Below are positions 4,059 through 60,235 of a stretch of 64,000 nt of DNA, piece after piece (positions within the stretch are counted from its first letter, which is position 1; the number at the start of each line of letters is the position of its first letter). Source of the stretch: an uncultured Candidatus Saccharibacteria bacterium (GTDB taxonomy: Bacteria; Patescibacteriota; Minisyncoccia; Phycocordibacterales; UBA9973); assembly GCA_964634365.1 (NCBI GenBank), contig CAZWJU010000002.1, positions 167,150-231,149 of the forward strand, given 5' to 3'. The notes beneath the pieces are model-generated. The model made no database searches. It was not told the origin of the DNA and worked only from the letters and a program-made list of their open reading frames with translations. The position numbers and the translations under genes are program-made.

Positions 4059-4253
4059 GTCGGGGTGCCGGGTGAGCCGTGTGAGGGAACCCTGTGGGTG
4101 GACGGCGCAAGACCTTTTGAGATATCTTTACGAATATTTGAAGTAAAGTATCCAAAAGGTGTACAGGTTCTGTAAGAACTCGAACCCAGAGTCGCCTCTA
4201 TAATGATCCTCGAATACCGTTTATATACCTGGAGGTTGTTCTTAAAAGTTTTG
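4059..4253 (-). repeat. tRNA-Pro trailer element: degenerate direct copy of tRNA-Pro 3' half (aggcgactctgggttcgagttc) plus exact 14-nt copy of the tRNA 3' end (gtcggggtgccggg at 4059-4072), with a 70% GC segment in between
   Basis: Direct sequence comparison with tRNA-Pro at 4254-4326; spurious 114-aa ORF 4049..4393 overlies it. Confidence 0.6.
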
Positions 4254-4326: not shown

Positions 4327-4418
4327 ACAAAACTTTCAAAATACATAACTTACACAAAACTAGCTTGTAGGGCTCAGTATAGCCGAGATACATATAATCT
4401 TCAAGTTTTTTATAAATT

Positions 4419-4595
4419 GTGCGGGATAGGAGAATCGGTCACAAATAATTTTTATTACATAAAATTTTCGCGACCCCGACTCAGCGACAAGCACTCGCTT
4501 CGCTCGTCTTGTATACCGCCTCCGTCTTTCGATTCCCCTACCGCACTAAAACACAAAAGCCCGAACACTAACATGTCCGAACTTTGTGTTTTATG
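4419..4595 (-). repeat. tRNA-Gly(GCC) trailer element: hairpin, inverted tRNA-3'-like fragment (gtctttcgattcccctaccgcac on plus strand at 4520-4545), GAGTCGGGGTCGC core (plus strand 4470-4484 as reverse complement), ending in a 19-nt direct copy of the tRNA 3' end (4419-4437)
   Basis: gtgcgggataggagaatcg occurs at 4419-4437 and again as the genuine tRNA 3' end at 4596-4614. Confidence 0.6.
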
Positions 4596-4666
4596 TGCGG
4601 GATAGGAGAATCGAACTCCTGTCTCATCCTTGGCAAGGACGTGTTCTACCACTAAACCAATCCCGC
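4596..4666 (-). tRNA. tRNA-Gly (anticodon GCC), no encoded CCA
   Basis: Reverse complement: gcgggat acceptor, anticodon loop ttgccaa, T-arm ggagttcgattctcc, 3' atcccgc + discriminator A. Confidence 0.75.
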
Positions 4667-6270: not shown

Positions 6271-6341
6271 GCGGGATTAGTTAAATGGTATAACTTCAGT
6301 TTTCCAAACTGAAATCAAGGGTTCGATTCCCTTATCCCGCA
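6271..6341 (+). tRNA. tRNA-Gly (anticodon TCC; alternative register would give CCA), no encoded CCA
   Basis: gcgggat-ta-gtta-aatggta-taac-t-tcagt-tttccaa-actga-aatc-aaggg-ttcgatt-ccctt-atcccgc-a; shares acceptor stem with tRNA-Gly(GCC). Confidence 0.65.
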
Positions 6342-6470
6342 CAAATAATTTTATAGGGATAGTGAGCAAACTGCTTTGCTCACGGAAGGGAATCGAAAGA
6401 CTTTTCCATACAAGCGAAGCGAGACGGAAAAGTACCTGGCTATGTAATAGCCGATTCCCTTATCCCGCAC
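6342..6470 (+). repeat. tRNA-Gly(TCC) trailer element: inverted partial copy of the tRNA 3' end with embedded hairpin (gtgagcaaaCTGCtttgctcac), GCGAAGCGAG motif, ending with a 20-nt direct copy of the tRNA 3' end (6451-6470) 10 nt upstream of the cca start
   Basis: ccgattcccttatcccgcac at 6451-6470 versus tRNA 3' end ttcgattcccttatcccgcac at 6321-6341; gggaatcgaaagac and atacaagcgaagcgag shared with the Gly(GCC) trailer. Confidence 0.6.
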
Positions 6471-6480
6471 AAAATGCTCT

Positions 6481-7959
6481 ATGAGCAAAACACACGAAAT
6501 TAAAAAAGAATCCATACCTACTGAGATATTGGATATATTGAAAACTCTTGAAAGTTCTGGGTTTGAGGCTTTTATCGTAGGTGGCTGTGTTCGTGACTTA
6601 CTACTAAATCGTAAACCAAAAGATTGGGATATAACAACAAATGCAATACCAGAAGAAATAATACCTTTGTATGAAAAAACAGTTTACGAAAATACCTTTG
6701 GTACCGTTGCTGTAATACTAGAAGATAGTGAAGATAAAACACTTAGACAAATAGAGATAACTCCTTATAGAACAGAAGGGAAGTATTCTGACAAAAGACA
6801 CCCGGATACAGTGTCCTTTAGTAAAGATATAAAAGATGATTTAGCCAGAAGAGACTTTACGGTAAATGCTCTTGCCTACAACCCCTCTAGAAGTCAATTA
6901 ATTGACCTTTTTGAGGGTATAAAGGACATAGAGGTCAAAACTATAAGGACAGTCGGCAATCCTTCTGACAGGTTCTCTGAAGACGCTTTACGCATGATCA
7001 GGGCGATTCGTTTTTCTTGTGAACTTGGTTTTGCTGTGGATAACGAAACACTTCAGGCAATTGTGGAAAACGCACAAAATATTTCAGAAATTTCTACAGA
7101 AAGAATTAGAGACGAATTTGTAAAAATAATAATGTCCAAAGAGCCGGTGATAGGTGTTGCTATGCTCCAAAAAACTGGGATGCTTAAATACATAATCCCA
7201 GAACTAGAAGAGGGTATAGGGTGTGAACAGGGAGGTGCGCACAAATACAATGTATATGAGCACTTACTCCAGGCACTCCAACACTCTGCTGACAAAAACT
7301 GGCCACTAGAGATCAGACTCTCAGCGCTCTTTCACGATATCGGTAAGCCAAAAACTCGAAGAAAGGGAGTCAAGAAGGCGTATACATTCTATGGGCACGA
7401 AGTTGTTGGAGCAAGGATGGTTAAGGTGATTATGGAGAGACTAAAGTTCCCGAAAGATACAAGCGAGCTAGTGACAAAGCTAGTAAGACAACACATGTTC
7501 TTCTCTGACACAGAACAAATATCACTTTCTGCTGTACGAAGAATTGTGCGGAATGTAGGAGTGGAAAATATTTGGACACTTATGAATGTGCGTGAGTGTG
7601 ATCGTGTGGGAATGGCAAAAGTAGAAGCTCCATATCGATTGCGTAAATATCATGCAATGATCGAGGAGGTTCTGCGTGATCCGATATCTGTTTCGCAACT
7701 TGTGGTAGATGGAAATATTTTGATGGGTGAACTCAATGTGAAGCCCGGACCTCGCATGGGCTGGATACTAAACTCACTTCTAGAAGAAGTGCTCGATGAC
7801 CCAGCAAAAAATACTCGCGAGTATCTGGATAAAAGAGTAGGGGAACTGAACGAGTTGGAAGATAAAAGTTTGAAATTGTTAGCTGACAAAGCTAAGCAAA
7901 CAAAAGATGAACTAGAGGAAAAAGAGATCGAGGAATTACACAAGAAGCATAGAGTATAA
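6481..7959 (+). CDS. cca: CCA-adding tRNA nucleotidyltransferase (class II pol-beta NTase + HD domain)
   Basis: N-terminal GGCVRDLLL..KDWDITT nucleotidyltransferase motif, RDFTVNA, C-terminal HD (FHDIGKP); needed because none of the tRNA genes encode CCA. Confidence 0.8.
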   Translation: MSKTHEIKKESIPTEILDILKTLESSGFEAFIVGGCVRDLLLNRKPKDWDITTNAIPEEIIPLYEKTVYENTFGTVAVILEDSEDKTLRQIEITPYRTEGKYSDKRHPDTVSFSKDIKDDLARRDFTVNALAYNPSRSQLIDLFEGIKDIEVKTIRTVGNPSDRFSEDALRMIRAIRFSCELGFAVDNETLQAIVENAQNISEISTERIRDEFVKIIMSKEPVIGVAMLQKTGMLKYIIPELEEGIGCEQGGAHKYNVYEHLLQALQHSADKNWPLEIRLSALFHDIGKPKTRRKGVKKAYTFYGHEVVGARMVKVIMERLKFPKDTSELVTKLVRQHMFFSDTEQISLSAVRRIVRNVGVENIWTLMNVRECDRVGMAKVEAPYRLRKYHAMIEEVLRDPISVSQLVVDGNILMGELNVKPGPRMGWILNSLLEEVLDDPAKNTREYLDKRVGELNELEDKSLKLLADKAKQTKDELEEKEIEELHKKHRV

Positions 7960-11796: not shown

Positions 11797-12561
11797 TTAC
11801 TCAATAGAATCCCACATAAATTGAAATAGCGTCAGGAACGTATTTGCGATATCAGTGTTTTCAATAATCGTGGTGACCATAGCATCTTTGTTTTTAACAG
11901 AAGTTATACTAACCTTGCCTTTGTAAATCAAGATGTAAGCTGGCAAGACAAATTTATCTTTTGGGATTATTTTACGAGTTATATTACGCTCCATATCATG
12001 CGAATACACAACACTAGACATATGCTCTAGTTTTGGAGTTAAGACGTACGACCTAATACCAGCTTGCGATTGTTTCTTTAGTTGTTCGCTTATGAGTGTG
12101 CGAAGCTCTTTGTTTTCGTGGTCGTAGAGAGATCTGAAAACAAATACTTCTTTTACGTTTTTCAAAATATCTGAATAGGTTTCTCTTATACCATCGAAAC
12201 CTTCAAAGAATTTTACATGCGGACGAGAATGTAGAGTGTTGAAGTCGCTTACAAGATGTTCTATTACTTTTCCATAGGCTAGGCTCGCTTCATCTGCGAG
12301 AAGTTTTTTCTCTTCAGCAACTCTTTTGATACTTTCTGGATGTTTTGCTCTCCATAACGCAACCTTTCCTATGTTTTCTACTTTTTCACACAAGCCGATA
12401 GCAGTGAGTTGGTCTAGCACATAGTAAGTAAGCTCTCTACCTACTCCAGCATTTTTAGAAATATTACGAACAGGTAAAAGAGGGGACGAGAGGAGCACTT
12501 CATATATAAGAGCCTGCTCTCGGGTTAATCCTATGCGAATTAGTTCATTTGTGTAGTTCAT
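11797..12561 (-). CDS. TrmB-family transcriptional regulator
   Basis: N-terminus IRIGLTREQALIYEVLLSSP...ISKNAGVGRELTYYVLDQLTAIGL is the same wHTH architecture as 1002..1772. Confidence 0.55.
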   Translation of the reverse strand: MNYTNELIRIGLTREQALIYEVLLSSPLLPVRNISKNAGVGRELTYYVLDQLTAIGLCEKVENIGKVALWRAKHPESIKRVAEEKKLLADEASLAYGKVIEHLVSDFNTLHSRPHVKFFEGFDGIRETYSDILKNVKEVFVFRSLYDHENKELRTLISEQLKKQSQAGIRSYVLTPKLEHMSSVVYSHDMERNITRKIIPKDKFVLPAYILIYKGKVSITSVKNKDAMVTTIIENTDIANTFLTLFQFMWDSIE

Positions 12562-16952: not shown

Positions 16953-17867
16953 TTATTTCTTTGAATGAAATTTTTTATGAACATCGCGAAGCTGCTTGTC
17001 GGTAACATGGGTATATATCTGAGTAGTAGCAATATTTGCATGCCCTAACATCATCTGTACAGAACGTATGTCTGCACCGTTTGAAAGCAGGTCAGTTGCA
17101 AAAGAGTGGCGTATTACATGCGGAGTAACTTTTTTAGAGATACCGGCTTTAATTGCATAGTGTTTTACGATTCTCTCGATTGATCTTTGTGTTAGCCGAC
17201 CACCGCTTTGGCCTTTGTTTCTTGCATGCTGAACAAACATTGGTTCGTCTGTGTCAGTACGCTTTTTCAAATAATCACGAATAGCAGATTTTGCGGAATC
17301 TGATAAAAAAACCACACGAACCTTTTCACCCTTTCCACGAATTGAAAACTCATCTTTAGATAAATCTAAATCTCGATTTAGAGAACACAACTCGGATAAA
17401 CGCAATCCTGTTGAGAAAAATAATTCTAATATAGCTCTATCTCGCAATGATTTTAAATCATCTTTGTCTGGAGCTTTCAGTAGGCGATTTAATTCTTCGA
17501 CAGTTATCAGGTCTAGATGTCTCTCTTTTATTTTAGCGAGCTCTATCGCATCTGGAGAGATTGCTTGTATACCTCGCTTCATTAGATATTTTAAAAACCT
17601 GCGAAGAGCGATTAGGTAGTAGTTTTGAGTGTTTTTCTTCATTGTGGCACTAGACTGTCCACGTACATGTATCCCTGGCTGCCTGTTTAAATACAATCTG
17701 TATTCACGAATTGAATCGTCGGTTATATCTTTTAGACTGTCAGATTTTATAAACTCAAAAAAACGAGACAGGTACCTATCATAATTTGAAACTGTATTGA
17801 GACTTGCTCCACGTTCAATTTCCATGTATTCCAAAAATTGACGTTTTAGATTTTGAACCTCTGACAT
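16953..17867 (-). CDS. xerC: Tyrosine site-specific recombinase XerC/XerD family
   Basis: C-terminal HVIRHSFATDLLSNGADIRSVQMMLGHANIATTQIYTHV contains the R..H..R..Y catalytic box II. Confidence 0.8.
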   Translation of the reverse strand: MSEVQNLKRQFLEYMEIERGASLNTVSNYDRYLSRFFEFIKSDSLKDITDDSIREYRLYLNRQPGIHVRGQSSATMKKNTQNYYLIALRRFLKYLMKRGIQAISPDAIELAKIKERHLDLITVEELNRLLKAPDKDDLKSLRDRAILELFFSTGLRLSELCSLNRDLDLSKDEFSIRGKGEKVRVVFLSDSAKSAIRDYLKKRTDTDEPMFVQHARNKGQSGGRLTQRSIERIVKHYAIKAGISKKVTPHVIRHSFATDLLSNGADIRSVQMMLGHANIATTQIYTHVTDKQLRDVHKKFHSKK

Positions 17868-25012: not shown

Positions 25013-25744
25013 TTATAACTTTAGAAAACTTTCTTTTTTTATTAATCCAGCTTTTGATCTAATTATAAGCTCTTGAATTATTGTAATTATGTTACTAGTA
25101 ACCCAGTAAAGAGCTATCGCTGCAGATACGCTATATGCTACAAAGGCCACAAAAAATGGTAGGATGTATTTCATTTGAAATTGCATACTTTTTGCTAGCT
25201 GACCTTTGAAAGATAAGTCATTTGGATCTGCCGGTTTTATCATAGATGTGCTTATTTTCATTTGTATAAATTGTGTAAGACCAGCTAAAATCGCAAAAAT
25301 AATACTCTTTTCTTCTAGATTTATACCTAAAAACATTGTTGATAGATTTTCTGGTATGTGAACAAAAGAATAAAGTATTCCTGTGTTAGATTCTATTCCT
25401 CTTAAAAAAACTTGGTAAAGAGCTATGATTATTGGTAGTTGTATTAATATAACTAAACAACTAGAAAAAGGGTTTACATTATTTTTTTTATATAATTCTA
25501 GTGTTTTTTTAGATTGTTCTGTTTTATCTGGATAATCTTTCTTTATTTTTTCTATATCATCATTTAGTGCGTATATTTTTGCCTGACTTAATATAGATTT
25601 TTTTGTAAGAGGGAACATTAGTATTTTTACTATTAATGTGAGGGTTATAACAGCAAGTCCAATACCCCCAAAAGTACCTGTAAAAAATACGAGCGCATTA
25701 TATAGTGGCTCATAAAAAATAGTTGTCCAAATATTTGATAGCAT
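25013..25744 (-). CDS. yidC: Membrane protein insertase YidC (short form)
   Basis: 243 aa, 5 TM, conserved LNDD..K.......LYKKNNVNP and PFFVAFVAY motifs; synteny with yidD/rnpA/rpmH. Confidence 0.8.
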   Translation of the reverse strand: MLSNIWTTIFYEPLYNALVFFTGTFGGIGLAVITLTLIVKILMFPLTKKSILSQAKIYALNDDIEKIKKDYPDKTEQSKKTLELYKKNNVNPFSSCLVILIQLPIIIALYQVFLRGIESNTGILYSFVHIPENLSTMFLGINLEEKSIIFAILAGLTQFIQMKISTSMIKPADPNDLSFKGQLAKSMQFQMKYILPFFVAFVAYSVSAAIALYWVTSNIITIIQELIIRSKAGLIKKESFLKL

Positions 25745-26491: not shown

Positions 26492-26638
26492 GCCTTGCAT
26501 CATACATTAAAAGGCTGTTTTGGGCAAGATTTTGTATTGTTTTTTTATAAAATATTATTAACAGTTTATACACAATTGTATTTTTATTTTAGGTCTTTTT
26601 ATTATCAATCTGTAGACTATAATGAGTTAACTAAACTT

Positions 26639-27985
26639 ATGATGGAAAACAAACAACTTTGGGAAACATGCTTATCTGAGATTGAACAGTCTGTTTCTAG
26701 GGCAAATTTCAGTACATGGTTTAAAAATACTTCTATTACTAAACAAGATTCTGGAACCGCTTATATTGGTGTCCCAAATGAATTCGTAAAAGATTGGCTT
26801 TTCAATAAATATCACAAGTTAATACTTAAAACTCTTATGAATCATTCAGAAAATGTTCGTGGTATTGAGTTTGTTATAGTAAAACATGATATAAGGCAAA
26901 AAATAGAAGATATAGAGCAGAAATCAATCTTAAACAAAGAACTGCCTCTGGCTGATCTATATATAAACAAAGAAGATAATCTTAATCCAAGATATATATT
27001 TGATGGATTTATTGTTGGAGGGTTCAATGAACTAGCTTTTGCAGCCTCACAAGCTATTGTAAGCAAGCCTGGAACAAGTTATAACCCATTTTTCGTATAT
27101 GGAGGTACAGGACTTGGTAAAACGCATTTAATCCAAGCAATAGGTAATACTATTAAAACAAAATACCCAGAAAAAAGGGTGCATTATATAACTCTTGAAA
27201 AATTTGCTACTGATCTAATAAACTCTTTTCAAACAAATAAAGCCAATTCATTTAAAGAAAAGTATAGAAAATACGATGTTTTGATTATTGATGATATCCA
27301 GTTTGTAGGGAAGATGGAAAAAACTCAAGAAGAACTTTTTCATACATTTAATACTTTTTATGAAAATAATAAACAAATAATATTTTCATCAGACAAACAC
27401 CCTAATTATATCCCGGGATTAGAAGACCGTATGAAGTCTAGATTTCAAGCTGGAATGATTATAGATATAGGCGAACCTGAATATGAATCTAGATTAGCTA
27501 TACTTAAAGCTAAAGTAAAAGAGCAGGGTGTACCTATAAACGATGATGTTGTTGATTTTATAGCTTCTTCTATAAATGGATCTATTCGTGAACTTGAAGG
27601 TAGTCTAAATGCTATAGTTTGCCAAACTAGATTGAAAAATAAAGAGATTTCTTTAACAGAGGCAAAGAATTTGATTAAAAACAATATTAGACCAAAGAAA
27701 AGTGTCTCTATAGACGAAGTGGTTAAAGTAGTTGCTCAGTTTTATAATATAGATGAATCTACTGTATACGAAAAAACACGTAGAAAAGAGATTGTTAAAA
27801 CGAGACAAATGATAATGTACCTTCTTCGTGAAGATTTTAACGTTTCATATCCATTGATAGGTCAAAAACTAGGTGGAAAAGATCACACAACAGTTATACA
27901 TTCTTTCTTGAAGATAAAAGACGATCTAAAAACAAACCAAACATTGGCGCAGGAATTAGAACAGATAAGAGTTATGTTTAAATAA
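26639..27985 (+). CDS. dnaA: Chromosomal replication initiator DnaA (start at MMENKQLWE; the ORF-track N-terminal 48 codons are likely non-coding leader)
   Basis: Walker A GGTGLGKTHL, DnaA signature ...DDIQF, sensor, C-terminal HTH (VKTRQMIMYLLRE...DHTTV). Confidence 0.95.
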   Translation: MMENKQLWETCLSEIEQSVSRANFSTWFKNTSITKQDSGTAYIGVPNEFVKDWLFNKYHKLILKTLMNHSENVRGIEFVIVKHDIRQKIEDIEQKSILNKELPLADLYINKEDNLNPRYIFDGFIVGGFNELAFAASQAIVSKPGTSYNPFFVYGGTGLGKTHLIQAIGNTIKTKYPEKRVHYITLEKFATDLINSFQTNKANSFKEKYRKYDVLIIDDIQFVGKMEKTQEELFHTFNTFYENNKQIIFSSDKHPNYIPGLEDRMKSRFQAGMIIDIGEPEYESRLAILKAKVKEQGVPINDDVVDFIASSINGSIRELEGSLNAIVCQTRLKNKEISLTEAKNLIKNNIRPKKSVSIDEVVKVVAQFYNIDESTVYEKTRRKEIVKTRQMIMYLLREDFNVSYPLIGQKLGGKDHTTVIHSFLKIKDDLKTNQTLAQELEQIRVMFK

Positions 27986-28194: not shown

Positions 28195-29292
28195 ATGAAT
28201 ATAAATACTACTGCAAAAAAAATAAAACAAGCTATAAACTTTACAGAAAAGATAACTGGTAAAAATCTAACATTACCTATTCTAAGTTCTATTCTCATTA
28301 TAGCTTCAGGTAAAACTCTTAAATTTAGATCAACAAACCTAAATCTAGGTATAGAAGTTGATATACCAGTAAAAGTAGTGAAAGACGGTGTTGTGGCTGT
28401 AAGAGGGGACGTTTTATCTCAAATATTTTCAACAATACAAGACAATGAAGATATAGAACTAAAACAAGAAAATGATAACTTATTGATAGTAACTAAAAAC
28501 AATCAGCTGTTAATAAAATCTAATTCTTATGAAGATTTTCCAACAATACCAGTTGTTTCTGGTGATAAACATATATTGAATTCAAAAAAAATAGTAGAAG
28601 GTATAAAATCAGTAGTTTATAGCTGTTCTATATCAGAAATAAAACCAGAAATGGCTAGTGTTTACATATATTCTGATGATGGAAATCTAGTTTTTGTAGC
28701 TACAGATTCATTTAGACTTGCAGAGAAAAAAATCAAATCAAAACATAGTACAGATTTTTCACCAATATTGATCCCTTTTAAAAATATAAATGAAATATTA
28801 AGGATATTAGAATCAACCTCTGAAGATATAGAGTGTGTAACCAGTAAAAATCAAATATCTTTCATGTTTGATGGTATATACATAACATCAAGGTTAATAG
28901 ATGGTGTTTTCCCAGATTATAAACAAATAATACCTAAAAATTTTACAACCGAAGTTGTTTTACTAAGACAAGATTTTTTAAATGCTTTAAAAATATCTAA
29001 TATATTTTCAGATAAATTTAATCAAATAACTTTCAATATAGACCCAAAAAGTAAAACATGTGAATTAAACGCTAGAAACAATGATATAGGGGAAAATAAA
29101 ACAAAAATTGACGCAACAATAGAAGGTGAACCAATTTCAATGAGCTTCAACTACAAGTATATTATCGATTGTTTTCAATCTATAAATCAAGATAGTCTAA
29201 CTTTAAAATTTAACGGCTCAAACAAACCGCTAATCATAAAAGGTGGTAGTGATCAAACATTTATATATTTAGTTATGCCTATGAATAGATAA
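28195..29292 (+). CDS. dnaN: DNA polymerase III beta sliding clamp
   Basis: 365 aa, three-domain clamp pattern; position after dnaA. Confidence 0.9.
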   Translation: MNINTTAKKIKQAINFTEKITGKNLTLPILSSILIIASGKTLKFRSTNLNLGIEVDIPVKVVKDGVVAVRGDVLSQIFSTIQDNEDIELKQENDNLLIVTKNNQLLIKSNSYEDFPTIPVVSGDKHILNSKKIVEGIKSVVYSCSISEIKPEMASVYIYSDDGNLVFVATDSFRLAEKKIKSKHSTDFSPILIPFKNINEILRILESTSEDIECVTSKNQISFMFDGIYITSRLIDGVFPDYKQIIPKNFTTEVVLLRQDFLNALKISNIFSDKFNQITFNIDPKSKTCELNARNNDIGENKTKIDATIEGEPISMSFNYKYIIDCFQSINQDSLTLKFNGSNKPLIIKGGSDQTFIYLVMPMNR

Positions 29293-35954: not shown

Positions 35955-36046
35955 TCCATACTTTTAAAAAGCCTAACGGAACGCGTCGGCGTGAGTTTGA
36001 GGGATTTTTCAGCAGAAAAATACCCGTGCTTTTTAAAAGTTATGGA
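35955..36046. repeat. Hairpin element 2: 18-bp near-perfect inverted repeat TCCATACTTTTAAAAAGC / GCTTTTTAAAAGTTATGGA enclosing a 55-nt loop (..cgcgtcggcgtga..)
   Basis: Read directly; same architecture and similar loop motif as element 1. Confidence 0.6.
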
Positions 36047-46930: not shown

Positions 46931-47003
46931 CCTCCCGTAGCTCAGTCGGTAGAGCAGCTCCCTTTTAAGGAGAGGGTCGTAGGTTCGATTCCTACCGGGA
47001 GGA
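46931..47003 (+). tRNA. tRNA-Lys (anticodon TTT), no encoded CCA
   Basis: cctcccg-ta-gctc-agtcggta-gagc-a-gctcc-cttttaa-ggaga-gggtc-gtagg-ttcgatt-cctac-cgggagg-a. Confidence 0.7.
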
Positions 47004-47180
47004 CAAGGTCGAAAAAGTGGACTGCTCCACTTTTGAGTACACTTGTCCTAGACGGAAACATGTTTCGTTAGCAGACGAAACAGTTGAGTCGGGGTCGCAG
47101 AAAAATACGAGCGGCGGCGAGTATTTTATCTGTGACGACACATTCACTCTTAAATAAGGAAAGATTCCTACCAAGATAAT
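47004..47180 (+). repeat. tRNA-Lys trailer element: hairpin aaaagtggaCTGCtccactttt, core GAGTCGGGGTCGC (47086-47098) ...ACGAGCGGCGGCGAGTA..TGTGACGACA, ending with a 10-nt copy of the tRNA 3' region (gattcctacc, 47163-47172)
   Basis: Aligned by eye with the element after tRNA-Arg(GCG) (53146-53300) and after tRNA-Gly(GCC). Confidence 0.55.
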
Positions 47181-52741: not shown

Positions 52742-53002
52742 ATGCCATTAATCAATTTTTACGGAGAAGAGTGCCCACATTGCCAACATATGCATACTGT
52801 AGTCGAAAAACTCGAGAAAGAAGAGGGGATAAAAGTAGAAAAGATGGAAGTCTGGCACAACAAGGAAAATTTAAAGAAACTTGAAGACCTCGACAAGGGT
52901 GTGTGTGGTGGAGTGCCGTTTTTCATAAATACAGAAACAGGCAAGACTATTTGTGGCGAAGCTGAGTACGAAGCTCTAAAATCTTGGGCAAAAGGGGAAT
53001 AA
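52742..53002 (+). CDS. Small thioredoxin/glutaredoxin-like protein (CPHC active site); start at MPLINFYGEECPHC (frame begins 52694)
   Basis: ECPHCQ...GVPFF pattern typical of glutaredoxin-like YruB/NrdH fold; terminator aacacccatctcgggtgtt at 53008-53031. Confidence 0.6.
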   Translation: MPLINFYGEECPHCQHMHTVVEKLEKEEGIKVEKMEVWHNKENLKKLEDLDKGVCGGVPFFINTETGKTICGEAEYEALKSWAKGE

Positions 53003-53073
53003 AAATAAAAACACCCATCTCGGGTGTTTTTATTTACAAAATCCTTAAAATACAGTATATTTCAATCTGCTAC

Positions 53074-53145
53074 GGCCCCGTAGTTCAACGGATAGAATGC
53101 AAGATTGCGGATCTTGTGATCCAAGTTCGATTCTTGGCGGGGTCA
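53074..53145 (+). tRNA. tRNA-Arg (anticodon GCG as read; loop ttgcgga), no encoded CCA
   Basis: ggccccg-ta-gttc-aacggata-gaat-g-caaga-ttgcgga-tcttg-tgat-ccaag-ttcgatt-cttgg-cggggtc-a; 72 nt. Confidence 0.6.
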
Positions 53146-53420
53146 CATATAAGAAAAAGACTGGACTGCTCCAGCCTTTTTCTTATATGTGACGGGCGCA
53201 GTGATGTTTTATTAGAGAACAAAACCACGAGCCGGGGTCGAGAAATTTTGCGAGTGGCGACGAGTAAAATATTCGTGACCACAAGGTGGTATAATGAGCA
53301 GACTTAGTAACTTGTGACCACATTAAATCTCTATGTGACGACAAGAAATTGTTTGTAGCCACACTACTAAAAGTCGCGATAAATTTCCATCAGGAAATTT
53401 ACTTGTGATCATACCTAAAA
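53146..53420 (+). repeat. tRNA-Arg trailer element expanded into an iteron-like array: 16-bp-stem hairpin with loop actggaCTGCtccagc (53146-53193), core GAGCCGGGGTCG (53229-53240)...GCGAGTGGCGACGAGTA, then 5-6 copies of (T)TGTGAC(N)ACA-like sites
   Basis: Sites read at 53180(tatgtgacggg), 53271(ttcgtgaccaca), 53311(cttgtgaccaca), 53332(tatgtgacgaca), 53356(ttgtagccaca), 53401(cttgtgatcata); followed by an AT-rich stretch to 53610. Confidence 0.55.
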
Positions 53421-53614
53421 ATACCAAAAGGTGTTTTTTAGATCTATACCTTGTAGAATATATAATATTGACTTAATATTATATTTATGCTATAATTCTA
53501 AAATAGCTCTTTAAACTATATTGATTTGCATCAATATTTATTGAGTTTTCTTGGTTTCTTATTAGGGGATTCAAGATGACTCAGTAAATATTTAAATTTA
53601 AATCAATATAAAAC

Positions 53615-54103
53615 ATGGGATACGAATTAAGAAAGGTGCCGGCAAGTTGGGAGCACCCAAAAAATGAAAAAGGTAATTACATACCACTTTTTGGTGGTAG
53701 TTACTCAAAATATTCAAAACACTTTGATATCCGCAGAGAAATGTGGAACAAAGGTTTTGATTTAAGTACGAATATTATAGAAGGAAAAATCGTAAATAAC
53801 TGGATTCCTAAAGATAAAGATAATACAGATTCTTTTGAGGACTGGTGGGATGGAGAAAAAAGAACGCCGGTAGACTATATGCCGGATTGGACTGAAGCTG
53901 AGCTCACGCATTTTCAAATGTATGAGAACGTTACAGAAGGAACGCCAATTTCTCCGGTTTTTGAAAAACCTGAAGACCTTGCTCATTGGTTGGGATTGAA
54001 TCTTGATAATAATTTATATCCATATACACAAGCTGAATGGCTTGTGATAATTAAAAAACCTGATGACCCCTCAACAAGTTTGATAATCCCCATCCAAACT
54101 TGA
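53615..54103 (+). CDS. Hypothetical protein
   Basis: 162-aa ORF, Trp-rich, no family recognised; terminator aaggcttcataacgaagcctt at 54135-54160. Confidence 0.4.
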   Translation: MGYELRKVPASWEHPKNEKGNYIPLFGGSYSKYSKHFDIRREMWNKGFDLSTNIIEGKIVNNWIPKDKDNTDSFEDWWDGEKRTPVDYMPDWTEAELTHFQMYENVTEGTPISPVFEKPEDLAHWLGLNLDNNLYPYTQAEWLVIIKKPDDPSTSLIIPIQT

Positions 54104-58652: not shown

Positions 58653-59438
58653 ATGGATAAAAGAAAAGAAATTCTAATAGAGCTTGGACTTGGCAACCAT
58701 GAGGCACTCGTATACAGTGCTCTCTTGGAAGAGTCTTCTTGCGGTGCAACAAAACTTTCTAAAAAGGTAGGGCTAGCGCGAAGCAGTGTCTATACAACCC
58801 TTTCTGGTCTTATAAGTAAGGGTCTAGTGGGCGAGAAGAAGAGTGGTAGTACAACTGAATTTAAGGCAGGCTCAATTGAGGCATTAGAAACATATCTTGA
58901 AAAACAAAAAGCCAATTCTATAAGAAAATTAAATATATTATCTAGTTCAAAAAGCCTCTTAAAAATTGAAAAGATCGAACTAGATGAAAGTAAGCCCGAA
59001 ATAATTACTTTCTCAGGTGTAGATGGTCTCAAGCGTATTTACTTACAAATGCTTCGAGATGCAAAATCAGGAGATGAGCTTTTAATGATACGTGATGAAT
59101 TTGTATGGAATAGTAAATGGAGATTTATTTTTGAGCCACAGTGGCATATACGTGTAAGAAAAATCAGAAAAGAAAAAAATATTAAAGCAAAATTACTTGT
59201 GAACAACTCTAAGATCGAAAAATCTAAACAAAATTTTTATAAATCACGCAGGAGTACAACATTTAGATTTTTATCAAAAGATTTATGTTTGGAAAATTAT
59301 GCTGAATATATAATTGGTAATACTATGTGCGTACTATCCACGGAAAAAGATAATCCAGTAGGAATTTTTATCCGAAACAAGACTATGGCTAAAAATTCCG
59401 CTAGAATTTTTGAAAATATCTGGAAAAATTCTAAATAG
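58653..59438 (+). CDS. TrmB-family transcriptional regulator
   Basis: ILIELGLGNHEALVYSALLEESSCGATKLSKKVGLARSSVYTTLSGLISKGLV wHTH. Confidence 0.55.
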   Translation: MDKRKEILIELGLGNHEALVYSALLEESSCGATKLSKKVGLARSSVYTTLSGLISKGLVGEKKSGSTTEFKAGSIEALETYLEKQKANSIRKLNILSSSKSLLKIEKIELDESKPEIITFSGVDGLKRIYLQMLRDAKSGDELLMIRDEFVWNSKWRFIFEPQWHIRVRKIRKEKNIKAKLLVNNSKIEKSKQNFYKSRRSTTFRFLSKDLCLENYAEYIIGNTMCVLSTEKDNPVGIFIRNKTMAKNSARIFENIWKNSK

Positions 59439-59440
59439 TT

Positions 59441-60235
59441 TTATTTTGCATGGGGTTTGGATGCACCCCAGAGGCCTTCGAAAACTGCACGCATTGTGTT
59501 TGCGTGCTCAGCTGAAGATATAAGGACTGCGTAGCACTCTTTCATAGAAGATACATACAAAGTAGAGTTGTCGAATATAAATATAGTAGTACTGAATTTG
59601 TCCTTCATAACACTCGGAAGTATTTGTACATCTGCAGCTTTTTCATAATATTTTTTAAAAATAGATTTCTCTATCTCACGTTCCCAGAGATTGCGTGTAT
59701 GGATATTGCGCTTTATTCTTTCCTCTACGAAACTTTTTACAAACTCCCCGCCGATATCCCAAAAAAAGTTTTTTGATGGTGCTATACAAAATATCTCCTT
59801 TTCTTTTACATACATTGTATCCATCACGACACGTTTGATAGCCTCTCTCCCTTCAAAGAATGAAACTTGAGGTTTTGTATTTTTGTCACTTTGTTTTTTT
59901 GACAGTAGAGGGGCAAGTTCTCCGATTTTTTCTGTGAGCATCATTGCTTCACTCTCTCGTTCGCGAGCTATAGCTACGAGACGTTCTGTGGGGGAGAGTG
60001 TAAAACCAGAATCATTTTCTTTTTTTGATTTTGAGATCAAACCTCTTTTTTCAAGAGAAGAAAGCGCATAGTAGACTGTTGGGCGCTTCATCTTGGTCAC
60101 CTTCAGTAAATCTCTGGCGCTGGTAGAACCGGCAACCATACTCAAATACACGGTAGTTTCGGACTCCGACAGACCAAGTTCTTTTAGATATTTTTCTGGG
60201 TCAATCATAGTTGTATAACGGTTATTATACAGCAT
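59441..60235 (-). CDS. TrmB-family transcriptional regulator
   Basis: LKELGLSESETTVYLSMVAGSTSARDLLKVTKMKRPTVYYALSSLEKRGLI wHTH; convergent with the other paralog. Confidence 0.55.
   Translation of the reverse strand: MLYNNRYTTMIDPEKYLKELGLSESETTVYLSMVAGSTSARDLLKVTKMKRPTVYYALSSLEKRGLISKSKKENDSGFTLSPTERLVAIARERESEAMMLTEKIGELAPLLSKKQSDKNTKPQVSFFEGREAIKRVVMDTMYVKEKEIFCIAPSKNFFWDIGGEFVKSFVEERIKRNIHTRNLWEREIEKSIFKKYYEKAADVQILPSVMKDKFSTTIFIFDNSTLYVSSMKECYAVLISSAEHANTMRAVFEGLWGASKPHAK

Follow-up and report, generated by a model that had tools for sequence, protein, structure and literature searches.

What occupies the 468-nucleotide (nt) spacer between the transfer RNA (tRNA) gene for tRNA-Arg(GCG) and the next open reading frame (ORF; 53615-54103, plus strand) in a 64,000-nt stretch of an uncultured Candidatus Saccharibacteria genome (contig CAZWJU010000002.1, positions 167,150 to 231,149; hereafter, the window)? 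The original prediction, made from the sequence, described a hairpin, an iteron-like array of a short word and an AT-rich tract, and read them as an attachment site with integrase arm-type sites, as a plasmid or phage origin, or, failing these, as a remnant or satellite element mobilised in trans. The spacer is the 3' flank of tRNA-Arg(GCG) and holds a conserved element in one intact copy and at least four partial, decayed ones; the element is a three-helix structure of ~110 nt with a core of ~95 nt in a whole unit of ~140-260 nt. This element is probably non-autonomous, integrating site-specifically at gene 3' ends and mobilised in trans. The earlier observation is therefore partly confirmed: its origin and arm-site interpretation is wrong, and its fallback reading is the one that the evidence favors.

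The target gene, the intact copy (copy B) and the sequences behind it are arranged as follows:

53074-53146, plus strand: tRNA-Arg(GCG), the target gene (ARAGORN; Rfam tRNA, 63.8 bits)
53142-53193, plus strand: P0, a long hairpin in which the tRNA 3' end and trailer pair with their complement (inverted repeat I2)
53188-53191, plus strand: X' (TGTG), which forms the 5' side of helix P1 and is complementary to both the tRNA end and the repeat after the core (covariance-model alignment)
53192-53280, plus strand: core of element B, a three-way junction (covariance model R1, 97.7 bits, E 8e-25; fold z-score -7.8; covariation)
53274-53283, plus strand: first "iteron", CGTGACCACA, made up of GTGAC (P3 base, 3' strand) and the repeat X2 (sequence, alignment, covariance model)
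53287-53295, plus strand: putative extended -10-like sequence TGGTATAAT right behind element B (read from the sequence; absent from a two-hexamer promoter scan)
53296-53322, plus strand: remnant 2 (second "iteron"), GAGCAGACTTAGTAACTTGTGACCACA, a collapsed P3 of a variant element type, by comparison with other loci
53326-53343, plus strand: remnant 3 (third "iteron"), ending in TCTCTATGTGACGACA, a P3 3' end plus GACA repeat, by hand comparison
53346-53363, plus strand: remnant 4 (fourth "iteron"), AAATTGTTTGTAGCCACA, matching the P3 3'-strand consensus at 15 of 18 positions by hand
53369-53413, plus strand: remnant 5 (fifth "iteron"), AAAAGTCGCGATAAATTTCC-ATCA-GGAAATTTACTTGTGATCATA, a P3 helix that has lost its apex, P2 being absent (inverted repeat I24)
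53413-53439, plus strand: weak hairpin followed by a T-run, terminator-like (sequence and fold; absent from the terminator scan)
53468-53496, plus strand: sigma-70-type promoter TTGACT-17-TATAAT in the AT-rich tract, outside the element (11/12 consensus positions, TG extension)

Copy B spans 53147-53283 and consists of a CTGC-loop stem-loop followed by the ~95-nt three-way junction; the match to model R1 covers 53182-53290. The hairpin that had been described with a 16-bp stem is real but longer than claimed, with arms of 24 nt each at 53142-53165 and 53170-53193 that are 96% complementary, and its left arm begins inside the acceptor end, within the last four nucleotides of the tRNA. The inner stem-loop of P0, termed Hp, has its CTGC loop at 53166-53169 and a T-run; a terminator scan scores it as an intrinsic terminator (stem 53161-53174, tail CCTTTTTCTT) and scores the opposite strand too. 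A sigma-70 promoter inside P0 was considered and rejected, the candidate hexamers lying 14 nt apart. The segment X1 of copy B comprises the last nucleotides of tRNA-Arg(GCG) and the trailer (GTCACAT), and the sole repeat of the tRNA end, X2, is the 4-nt CACA at 53280-53283, 137 nt downstream. Of the helices within the core, P2 occupies 53195-53233 and P3 occupies 53236-53280. Both have in copy B the features found across the family: P2 combines a base helix (GNC/GN'C), an internal loop (GSAG/CGA) and a hairpin that varies; P3 is long, with a GGGUCG/YGUGAC base in which one G.U pair is invariant, a bulged A, and an apex, CGAG-YGGCGR-CGAG, that contains tandem G.A pairs.

How, then, should the repeated words be read? 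Five or six copies had been counted at a spacing of ~20-45 bp. Clustered words do exist, but exact TGTGACNACA occurs in the region only at 53313 and 53334, and the remaining words are the variants CGTGACCACA at 53274 (one mismatch), TGTAGCCACA at 53354 and TGTGATCATA at 53404 (two mismatches each); start-to-start distances are irregular, at 39, 21, 20 and 50 nt. A third exact TGTGACNACA lies at 47131, ~130 nt behind another tRNA (46931-47004), so that the window holds three against 0.24 expected. When up to two mismatches are allowed, the word is not enriched over the window as a whole (163 found, 155 expected), nor in the rest of the window, a comparison of density that the original prediction had called for; the five plus-strand matches within 140 nt nevertheless form a strong local cluster (lambda 0.18, P ~1e-6).

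The tRNA at 46931-47004 leads to a second intact copy, copy A, and to the identity of the first word:

46931-47172, plus strand: copy A behind tRNA-Lys(UUU) 46931-47004 (model R1, 98 bits at 47038-47147; fold z-score -6.9)

Alignment of the flanks of copies A and B reveals that the tRNAs differ while the next ~140 nt are homologous. Both flanks contain a long hairpin that starts from the tRNA end and has the loop GGACTGCTCC, then a small hairpin, the blocks CGGGGTCG and CGAG-Y-GGCG-R-CGAGTA, and the TGTGACNACA word. P0 of copy A lies at 47001-47048, its core extends to 47140 and ends in TGTGAC+GACA, and a 10-nt fragment of the tRNA T-arm, GATTCCTACC, follows at 47163-47172 (repeat table). Copies A and B fold alike, with compensatory changes (e.g., AAAAUAC/GUAUUUU against AUUUUGC/GUAAAAU), indicating that the first "iteron" is the 3' strand of a conserved helix. 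ARAGORN labels the tRNA at 46931-47004 a tRNA-Stop(tta) suppressor; in the Rfam register its 7-nt loop, CUUUUAA, is that of tRNA-Lys(UUU), its ortholog in the syntenic locus L170 (1971-2044) is called tRNA-Lys(ttt), and there is no sign of stop-codon recoding.

The other four words in the spacer each align with the element beyond the 10-mer and are thus, on this comparison, fragments of decayed copies, namely their ends. The variant P3 seen collapsed in remnant 2 is intact as GGGGTCGCGAGCACTTAG..hairpin..ACTTAGTGACTTGTGACC in L149 and L182, and the same 3' strand recurs in L129 and L158. Remnant 3 agrees at 14 of 18 positions with the family 3' consensus AAATTATCTGTGAC(C/G)ACA and contains an exact TGTGACGACA, while remnant 5 compares with the family sequence GGGGTCGCGGAAATTTCC..GGAAATTATCTGTGACC; a short apex is also found in an intact element (copy C, below). 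The "iterons" are, in short, the P3 3' strand plus X (TGTGAC+CACA or GACA), left by copies that are otherwise deleted. The TGGTATAAT sequence behind element B and the hairpin with T-run at 53413-53439 may bound a transcript of ~130 nt made of decayed copies.

The words are also partly palindromic and stand 55-195 nt upstream of a near-consensus promoter, as would double-stranded operators (TTGTGAC-CACAA) through which a dimeric transcription factor controls the promoter at 53468-53496 and ORF 53615. We consider this very unlikely: the same word stands at the same place in more than 80 copies of the element whose downstream genes are unrelated, the first word is a strand of a covarying helix, the others align with the element beyond the 10-mer, the spacing is irregular, and no regulator gene adjoins. 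The AT-rich tract itself stands as described, with a GC fraction of 0.21 over 53441-53614 compared with 0.355 in the window, and is most simply the promoter region of ORF 53615-54103.

To what family do these copies belong? A strict pattern built on the shared blocks was found at 62 metagenome loci and in three genome bins of the Candidate Phyla Radiation (CPR), L006 (Taylorbacteria) and L051 and L064 (Saccharibacteria); in the genome bins the pattern was too GC-rich and matched mostly by chance in high-GC genomes, and these three are the ones that we judge to be real. Model R1 found 83 matches in 390 kb of family loci, all co-oriented with the upstream gene. A unit consists of X (the last nucleotides of the target gene), Hp, X' (antisense to the start of X) and the ~95-nt core, with a second X after the core. 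The CTGC loop of Hp recurs in 19 of 49 family members whose stems are unrelated; Hp doubles as a terminator in AT-rich hosts and lacks the T-run in GC-rich hosts. X' and the second X form P1, which directly abuts the base of P3 (GGGUCG.../...YGUGAC), so that the boundary between element and repeat is always GAC|X.

The three-helix fold is carried by covariation. Over 43 sequences, 86.3% of the cells are paired, compared with 34-47% when the partners are slid, and the covariation score is 0.459 compared with 0.09-0.15 in controls, a value that none of 500 shuffles reached; RNAalifold agrees. The columns of P1 covary between TGTG/CACA, TGTC/GACA and TGGG/CCCA, and the middle pair of P2a appears as GC in 16 sequences, CG in 14, AU in 12 and UA in one, and is never broken. 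These helices, with compensatory changes above controls, are those of a conserved structured family. The P3 G.U pair is present in 43 of 43 sequences and another pair alternates between GC (22) and GU (16); since G.U pairs would be A.C on the opposite strand, it is the gene-sense strand that folds, as RNA or as single-stranded DNA. Large insertions are tolerated, of ~55 nt between P2 and P3 in L135, L146 and L148 and of ~38 nt in the P3 apex of the second unit of L156 (3016-3157).

Rfam 15 does not contain this family: over 52950-53700 only the tRNA passes, the matches at E<=10 being generic hairpin matches to microRNA models, and a search of 14 other loci returned only tRNAs at E<=0.1. Several known structured RNAs and repeats were tried and rejected. 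The core motifs of hammerhead, hairpin, hatchet and hepatitis delta virus (HDV)-like ribozymes are absent, with no Rfam match; 5S ribosomal RNA (rRNA), signal recognition particle RNA, RNase P RNA, transfer-messenger RNA (tmRNA) and Y RNA do not match in sequence, and the element exists in many copies; TIGR arrays and type III toxin-antitoxin repeats differ in unit size and context; and a tRNA minihelix mimic does not fit, because P1 is usually confined to the T-stem region and leaves most of the acceptor strand unpaired.

Within the window, four of the seven tRNAs carry the element, and tRNA-Pro, tRNA-Arg(UCG) and tRNA-Trp do not. Model R1 gives three strong matches, to copies A (98 bits), B (97.7 bits) and C (56 bits), to which a reduced fourth copy and an uncertain relative are added:

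4418-4594, minus strand: copy C behind tRNA-Gly(GCC) (4595-4666) (model match 4427-4539, E 2.6e-13)
6343-6473, plus strand: copy D, reduced, lying between tRNA-Gly(UCC) and the gene for the CCA-adding enzyme (inspection; model only 7.3 bits)
35962-36039, plus strand: possible minimal relative of 78 nt, membership uncertain (model match 25.5 bits, E 8e-5)

In copy C, P0 is present, P1 is long and the P3 apex of the core is short; at 4418-4437, the stretch of the tRNA from T-loop to end recurs as a perfect 20-nt repeat. Copy D was assigned by its layout, loop and repeat and by its likeness to copy C; its Hp lies at 6362-6383 (ACTGCT loop) and its X' at 6384-6395, the core is shortened, and a perfect 22-nt repeat makes 6452-6473 identical to 6324-6345. 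The 78-nt relative keeps NNCGGAA..GUGAGNN (the CGGAA/GUGAG internal loop) and a P3 with bulged A; it lies between ruvB and a pilB-like ATPase gene, with no tRNA near. The order tRNA, element, CCA-adding enzyme gene (cca) seen at copy D (window 6271-7959) recurs in L122, L131, L159 and L169/L179 with at least three tRNAs (Gly-UCC, Gly-GCC and Arg-UCG), which may merely reflect the position of cca behind tRNAs; L145 also encodes the CCA-adding enzyme, more than 1 kb from its element. The window tRNAs at 4253, 4595, 6120, 6271, 46931 and 53074 have CA directly behind the discriminator instead of an encoded CCA, and so does the tRNA-Arg(GCG) of L170, at a site free of the element.

These copies bear on whether the locus is a set of iterons beside a DNA-unwinding element, belonging to a plasmid, phage or secondary chromosomal origin or to the remnant of one. 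Repeats do cluster beside a tract of 21% GC. We nevertheless regard an origin here as extremely improbable. The repeats are 10-18 nt long with 0-2 mismatches and spacings of 39, 21, 20 and 50 nt, far from regular direct repeats of ~17-22 bp, and they are explained as a helix strand and fragments of decayed copies; the AT tract holds a consensus promoter; the same architecture stands behind three other tRNAs of the window; the plasmid and phage collections searched gave no matches; and the probable dnaA-dnaN origin region of the chromosome is at 25-30 kb. No Rep or other initiator adjoins the locus in a Pfam search of 20 flanking ORFs, and as the original prediction had noted, no integrase or transposase does either.

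The window is ordinary chromosome, with yidC at 25013-25744 (minus strand), dnaA at 26495-27985 and dnaN at 28195-29292. The AT-rich segment at 24-30 kb, where GC falls to 0.24, is probably the chromosomal replication origin region; the minimum of the cumulative GC skew lies nearer 17 kb. Four paralogous regulators of the TrmB family are encoded at 1002-1772, 11797-12561, 58653-59438 and 59441-60235.

Does the element behave as an insertion? Its position is the first evidence. Approximately 45 of 68 copies lie 72-215 nt behind a tRNA on the same strand, and at least 24 anticodons are represented. The sequence after the final GAC of the core always repeats the 3' end of the upstream gene. In one class of tRNA repeats this duplicate is 13-23 nt long (most 18-23) and runs from C56 of the T-loop to just past the discriminator; in the other, which includes copies A and B, only the extreme end and trailer recur, over 4-10 nt. 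Being complementary to the beginning of the repeat, X' pairs with it as P1, and is equally able to pair with the real tRNA end, forming P0. Protein genes are also targeted: in four diverged contigs the element follows directly after the topA stop codon, with the last ~60-70 nt of the topA reading frame duplicated after the core, and L164 has the same layout at another protein gene. Inserts in both settings are thus bounded by a duplicated target sequence that restores the gene, of 13-23 nt at tRNAs and ~60-70 nt at topA.

The topA duplicates carry a further signal. Between the topA end and its duplicate, 35 codons differ synonymously and 4 non-synonymously, and 37 of 46 differences are at third positions; because the differences are almost all synonymous, the two copies diverged while coding. 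To judge by this pattern of substitution, one of the copies must have been coding sequence in a different lineage while it evolved, as would be the case for a replacement end brought by the element, or alternatively both copies are in use. In L170, 1815-1970 (plus strand) holds two tandem repeats of ~72 nt directly upstream of an intact tRNA-Lys, each opening with the first ~17 nt of that tRNA (TCCGCCCGTAGCTCAG) and continuing into unrelated sequence; these partial 5' duplications are the mirror image of the 3' duplications linked to the element.

Arrays and occupancy provide the second line of evidence. At many loci an intact copy has diverged or truncated copies as neighbors; in L156 the tRNA-end repeat of one element serves as the base of a second, behind which stands a third, and L166 and L153 contain near-identical tandem units. 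L170 is syntenic with the window (PolA, 55% identity; PEMT; HolA; SpoU, 56%; RuvA, 55%; DUF5673), and both corresponding sites are free of the element there: the SpoU start codon follows tRNA-Lys(UUU) after 3 nt, and the next gene follows tRNA-Arg(GCG), which is near-identical to that of the window and ends in GGGGTCACAT, after 31 nt. The element of L170 sits at tRNA-Arg(UCU) instead. In the Saccharibacteria bin L051, the order is DUF5673, tRNA-Arg(GCG), element, RuvA. The variation among related genomes that the original prediction had proposed to look for is therefore present: both sites are occupied in the window and empty in L170, and the Arg(GCG) site is occupied in L051, in relatives that are distant (37-56% protein identity). 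Contigs that encode the flanking ORFs came from the same strain only. Across 63 loci, no neighboring protein or transposase recurs beside the copies, the two largest clusters being spurious ORFs across the RNA and the tRNA.

The same comparison bears on the proposal that the tRNA is the left end (attL) of an island of ~4 kb at 53.1-57.4 kb, with the words as arm-type integrase sites. The position at a tRNA 3' end would suit such an island, and the block downstream (a hypothetical protein, DUF5673, a fatty-acid desaturase and an extracytoplasmic function sigma factor), which is as originally described, looks accessory. An island is nonetheless highly improbable, since the 20-nt end of tRNA-Arg is single in the window at up to 3 mismatches, no integrase is encoded in the block or within 44-58 kb, and the block resembles the rest of the window in composition and is ordinary in function. 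DUF5673 neighbors tRNA-Arg(GCG) in L170 and L051 as well and is thus not island cargo. The fallback of a remnant or satellite mobilised in trans comes close to the evidence, in that a protein-less element of ~140 nt and its remnants lie exactly at the tRNA 3' end and belong to a family with duplicated target-gene ends and arrays.

We propose that the element would enter a gene at its 3' end, in the orientation of the gene, and would bring or regenerate that end, so that the gene stays intact. The junction would lie at the boundary of P3 and P1 (GAC|X). A folded single strand, either a transcript or single-stranded DNA, may present the X':X helix beside the core, and helix and core together would form the site that is recognised, cut or joined by a factor encoded elsewhere, with the short antisense X' setting or mirroring the choice of target. 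Repeated entry at one gene, combined with deletion, would then yield the arrays and the TGTGAC+CACA/GACA stubs. One candidate for the factor in trans is encoded in the window, with no link to the element:

16953-17867, minus strand: Xer-type tyrosine recombinase (Pfam Phage_integrase, 7e-45; NCBIfam XerD/XerC/XerA-type)

This protein scores 260 bits as XerD and passes the cutoff of the archaeal XerA/integron-integrase model. It is the sole tyrosine recombinase among the larger ORFs scanned, adjoins tRNA-Trp and lies 36 kb from the locus.

A different account holds the family to be structured RNAs that reside in the genome and are of use to the host, transcribed together with tRNAs and some mRNAs and freed when the P1 stem is cleaved; the duplicates and arrays would have arisen by local duplication and gene conversion, with no movement. 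This account is less probable than integration but serious. It is supported by the strong constraint on sequence and structure, including the conserved G.U, tandem G.A and junction nucleotides; by the strict co-orientation with the upstream gene; by the topA-linked position kept in four diverged contigs and the association with tRNA-Arg(GCG) common to the window and a Saccharibacteria bin; by the presence of several old lineages in one genome; and by the stem-loop of GC-rich hosts, which lacks a T-run, making read-through plausible. On the other hand, it must accommodate at least 24 tRNA species plus protein genes, each with matching X and X', and almost wholly synonymous differences at the topA end that an untranslated local duplicate would hardly produce. 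The decay of copies and their stacking in arrays indicate that many are dispensable, orthologous sites are empty in L170, and the density is high, at 4-5 copies in 64 kb.

Several observations weigh against integration in trans. Constraint on the core, with non-Watson-Crick features typical of functional RNA, fits a host-useful RNA equally well, and invariance at the 23 positions that the strict search pattern fixed by design is uninformative, although covariation persists in P1, P2a, P2b and most pairs of P3, which the fixed positions do not include. The cores of copies A and B are 63% identical and each is closer to copies on other contigs; the copies within one genome are thus old, and recent movement is not demonstrated. 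At protein identities of 37-56%, the "empty" sites of L170 may never have been occupied or may have lost their elements. Among the topA-linked copies, X' agrees with the X upstream of it in L147 and L176 and with the one downstream in L167, so that the copy borne by the element is inconsistent. The loci and collections searched yielded neither an excised or circular form nor an autonomous relative nor an associated enzyme, and the extrachromosomal copies that the original prediction had looked to did not appear in a pattern scan of viral contigs or in blastn searches of phage and plasmid collections. Transcription is also uncertain: a promoter scan detected none for the core of copy B, and in AT-rich hosts the Hp stem-loop with its T-run sits between the tRNA and the core.

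How does the element compare with known systems? Integrase-type elements (P4-like islands) at the 3' ends of tRNA, tmRNA and protein genes, whose sublocation classes Williams is said to have described in 2002, resemble it in position. On the integration reading, both enter the 3' part of a gene in the same orientation, share an identity block from the T-loop or acceptor end to the gene end, replace the gene end by a copy borne on the element, and leave partial tRNA fragments downstream through tandem accretion. Unlike those elements, the present unit is only ~140-260 nt long, encodes no integrase or other protein, targets at least 24 tRNA species and several protein genes, and bears, next to a three-way junction, an antisense segment that is complementary to the first part of the repeat; protein sites of the arm or core type were not recognised.

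The attC sites of integrons and the attP(+) of the CTX phage, the latter used by Xer recombinases, share the strand-specific fold, the conservation of structure over sequence, and conserved unpaired or mismatched bases. In attC, as here, a closing helix (R''/R' there, X'/X here) holds the junction and arrays form, and the recombinase acts in trans, as is proposed for the element. The element nevertheless lacks the GTTRRRY box, an integron platform and a nearby IntI, and its site is not dif; its closing helix is specific to the target (TGTG/CACA, GGGATTCG/CGAATCCC and others), and its core is a three-way junction rather than a single bulged hairpin.

In the ends of IS200/IS605 elements and their miniature derivatives, the palindrome-associated transposable elements (PATEs), a guide beside a hairpin pairs with the cleavage or target site. 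The order of target, hairpin, complementary guide, structured DNA and second recognised copy at the right end is the same in both, the active form is strand-specific, and by analogy the target may be encoded by base pairing. The differences are that no TnpA or TnpB gene lies near copies in the 63 loci, that pairing is Watson-Crick over 4-18 nt as opposed to a mixed interaction of 4-5 nt, and that the duplicated gene ends reach ~70 nt. Copy D runs against the lagging-strand rule that would be expected if the origin is at dnaA, and it contradicts a strict orientation rule of this kind.

A scaffold beside a variable segment matched to the target is also found in the omega RNAs of IscB and TnpB, in IS110 bridge RNAs and in the R2 co-transcript ribozyme. 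The R2 ribozyme pairs with host rRNA sequence. Like these RNAs, the element is co-oriented and probably co-transcribed with a highly expressed host gene; unlike them, it has no partner protein gene in or near any copy, its scaffold is outside any Rfam family, and it is known here from sequence alone. With the REP/BIME, Correia and RPE repeats, miniature bacterial elements that provide terminators or sites of RNA processing, it shares small size, high copy number, intergenic position, stable hairpins and a possibly neutral or mildly useful role, and it differs in lacking constant terminal inverted repeats and in its strict gene-3'-end position, target-matched flanks and three-way junction with non-canonical pairs.

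Because the element differs from each system compared in features that define it, with IS200/IS605 the least clear-cut case, we rate it as previously undescribed and outside the known kinds; a limited literature search found no description of it, the nearest hit being an unrelated paper on group I introns in the anticodon loop of Patescibacteria tRNA genes. A bolder and more doubtful proposal, which we put forward tentatively, is that the ~95-nt three-way-junction scaffold and the antisense guide X' together make up a CPR module, free of protein genes, for programmable, nucleic-acid-guided integration, with an enzyme encoded elsewhere that is perhaps of Xer type or a protein not yet recognised.

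CPR bacteria have tiny genomes and few recognised mobile elements, and yet this element is found on four of seven tRNAs in 64 kb and recurs across distant lineages, in Saccharibacteria, in Taylorbacteria and on many metagenome contigs. If it is mobile, it would represent a new and harmless route into gene 3' ends, in which the choice of target is legible as a short complementary segment and the recognition rule lends itself to testing and perhaps to re-programming. Were it a resident RNA instead, it would be an abundant and strongly constrained one, tied to tRNA genes throughout a major uncultivated radiation. Either way, it accounts for the repeat clusters and partial tRNA fragments behind tRNAs that annotation pipelines would read as att sites or origins.

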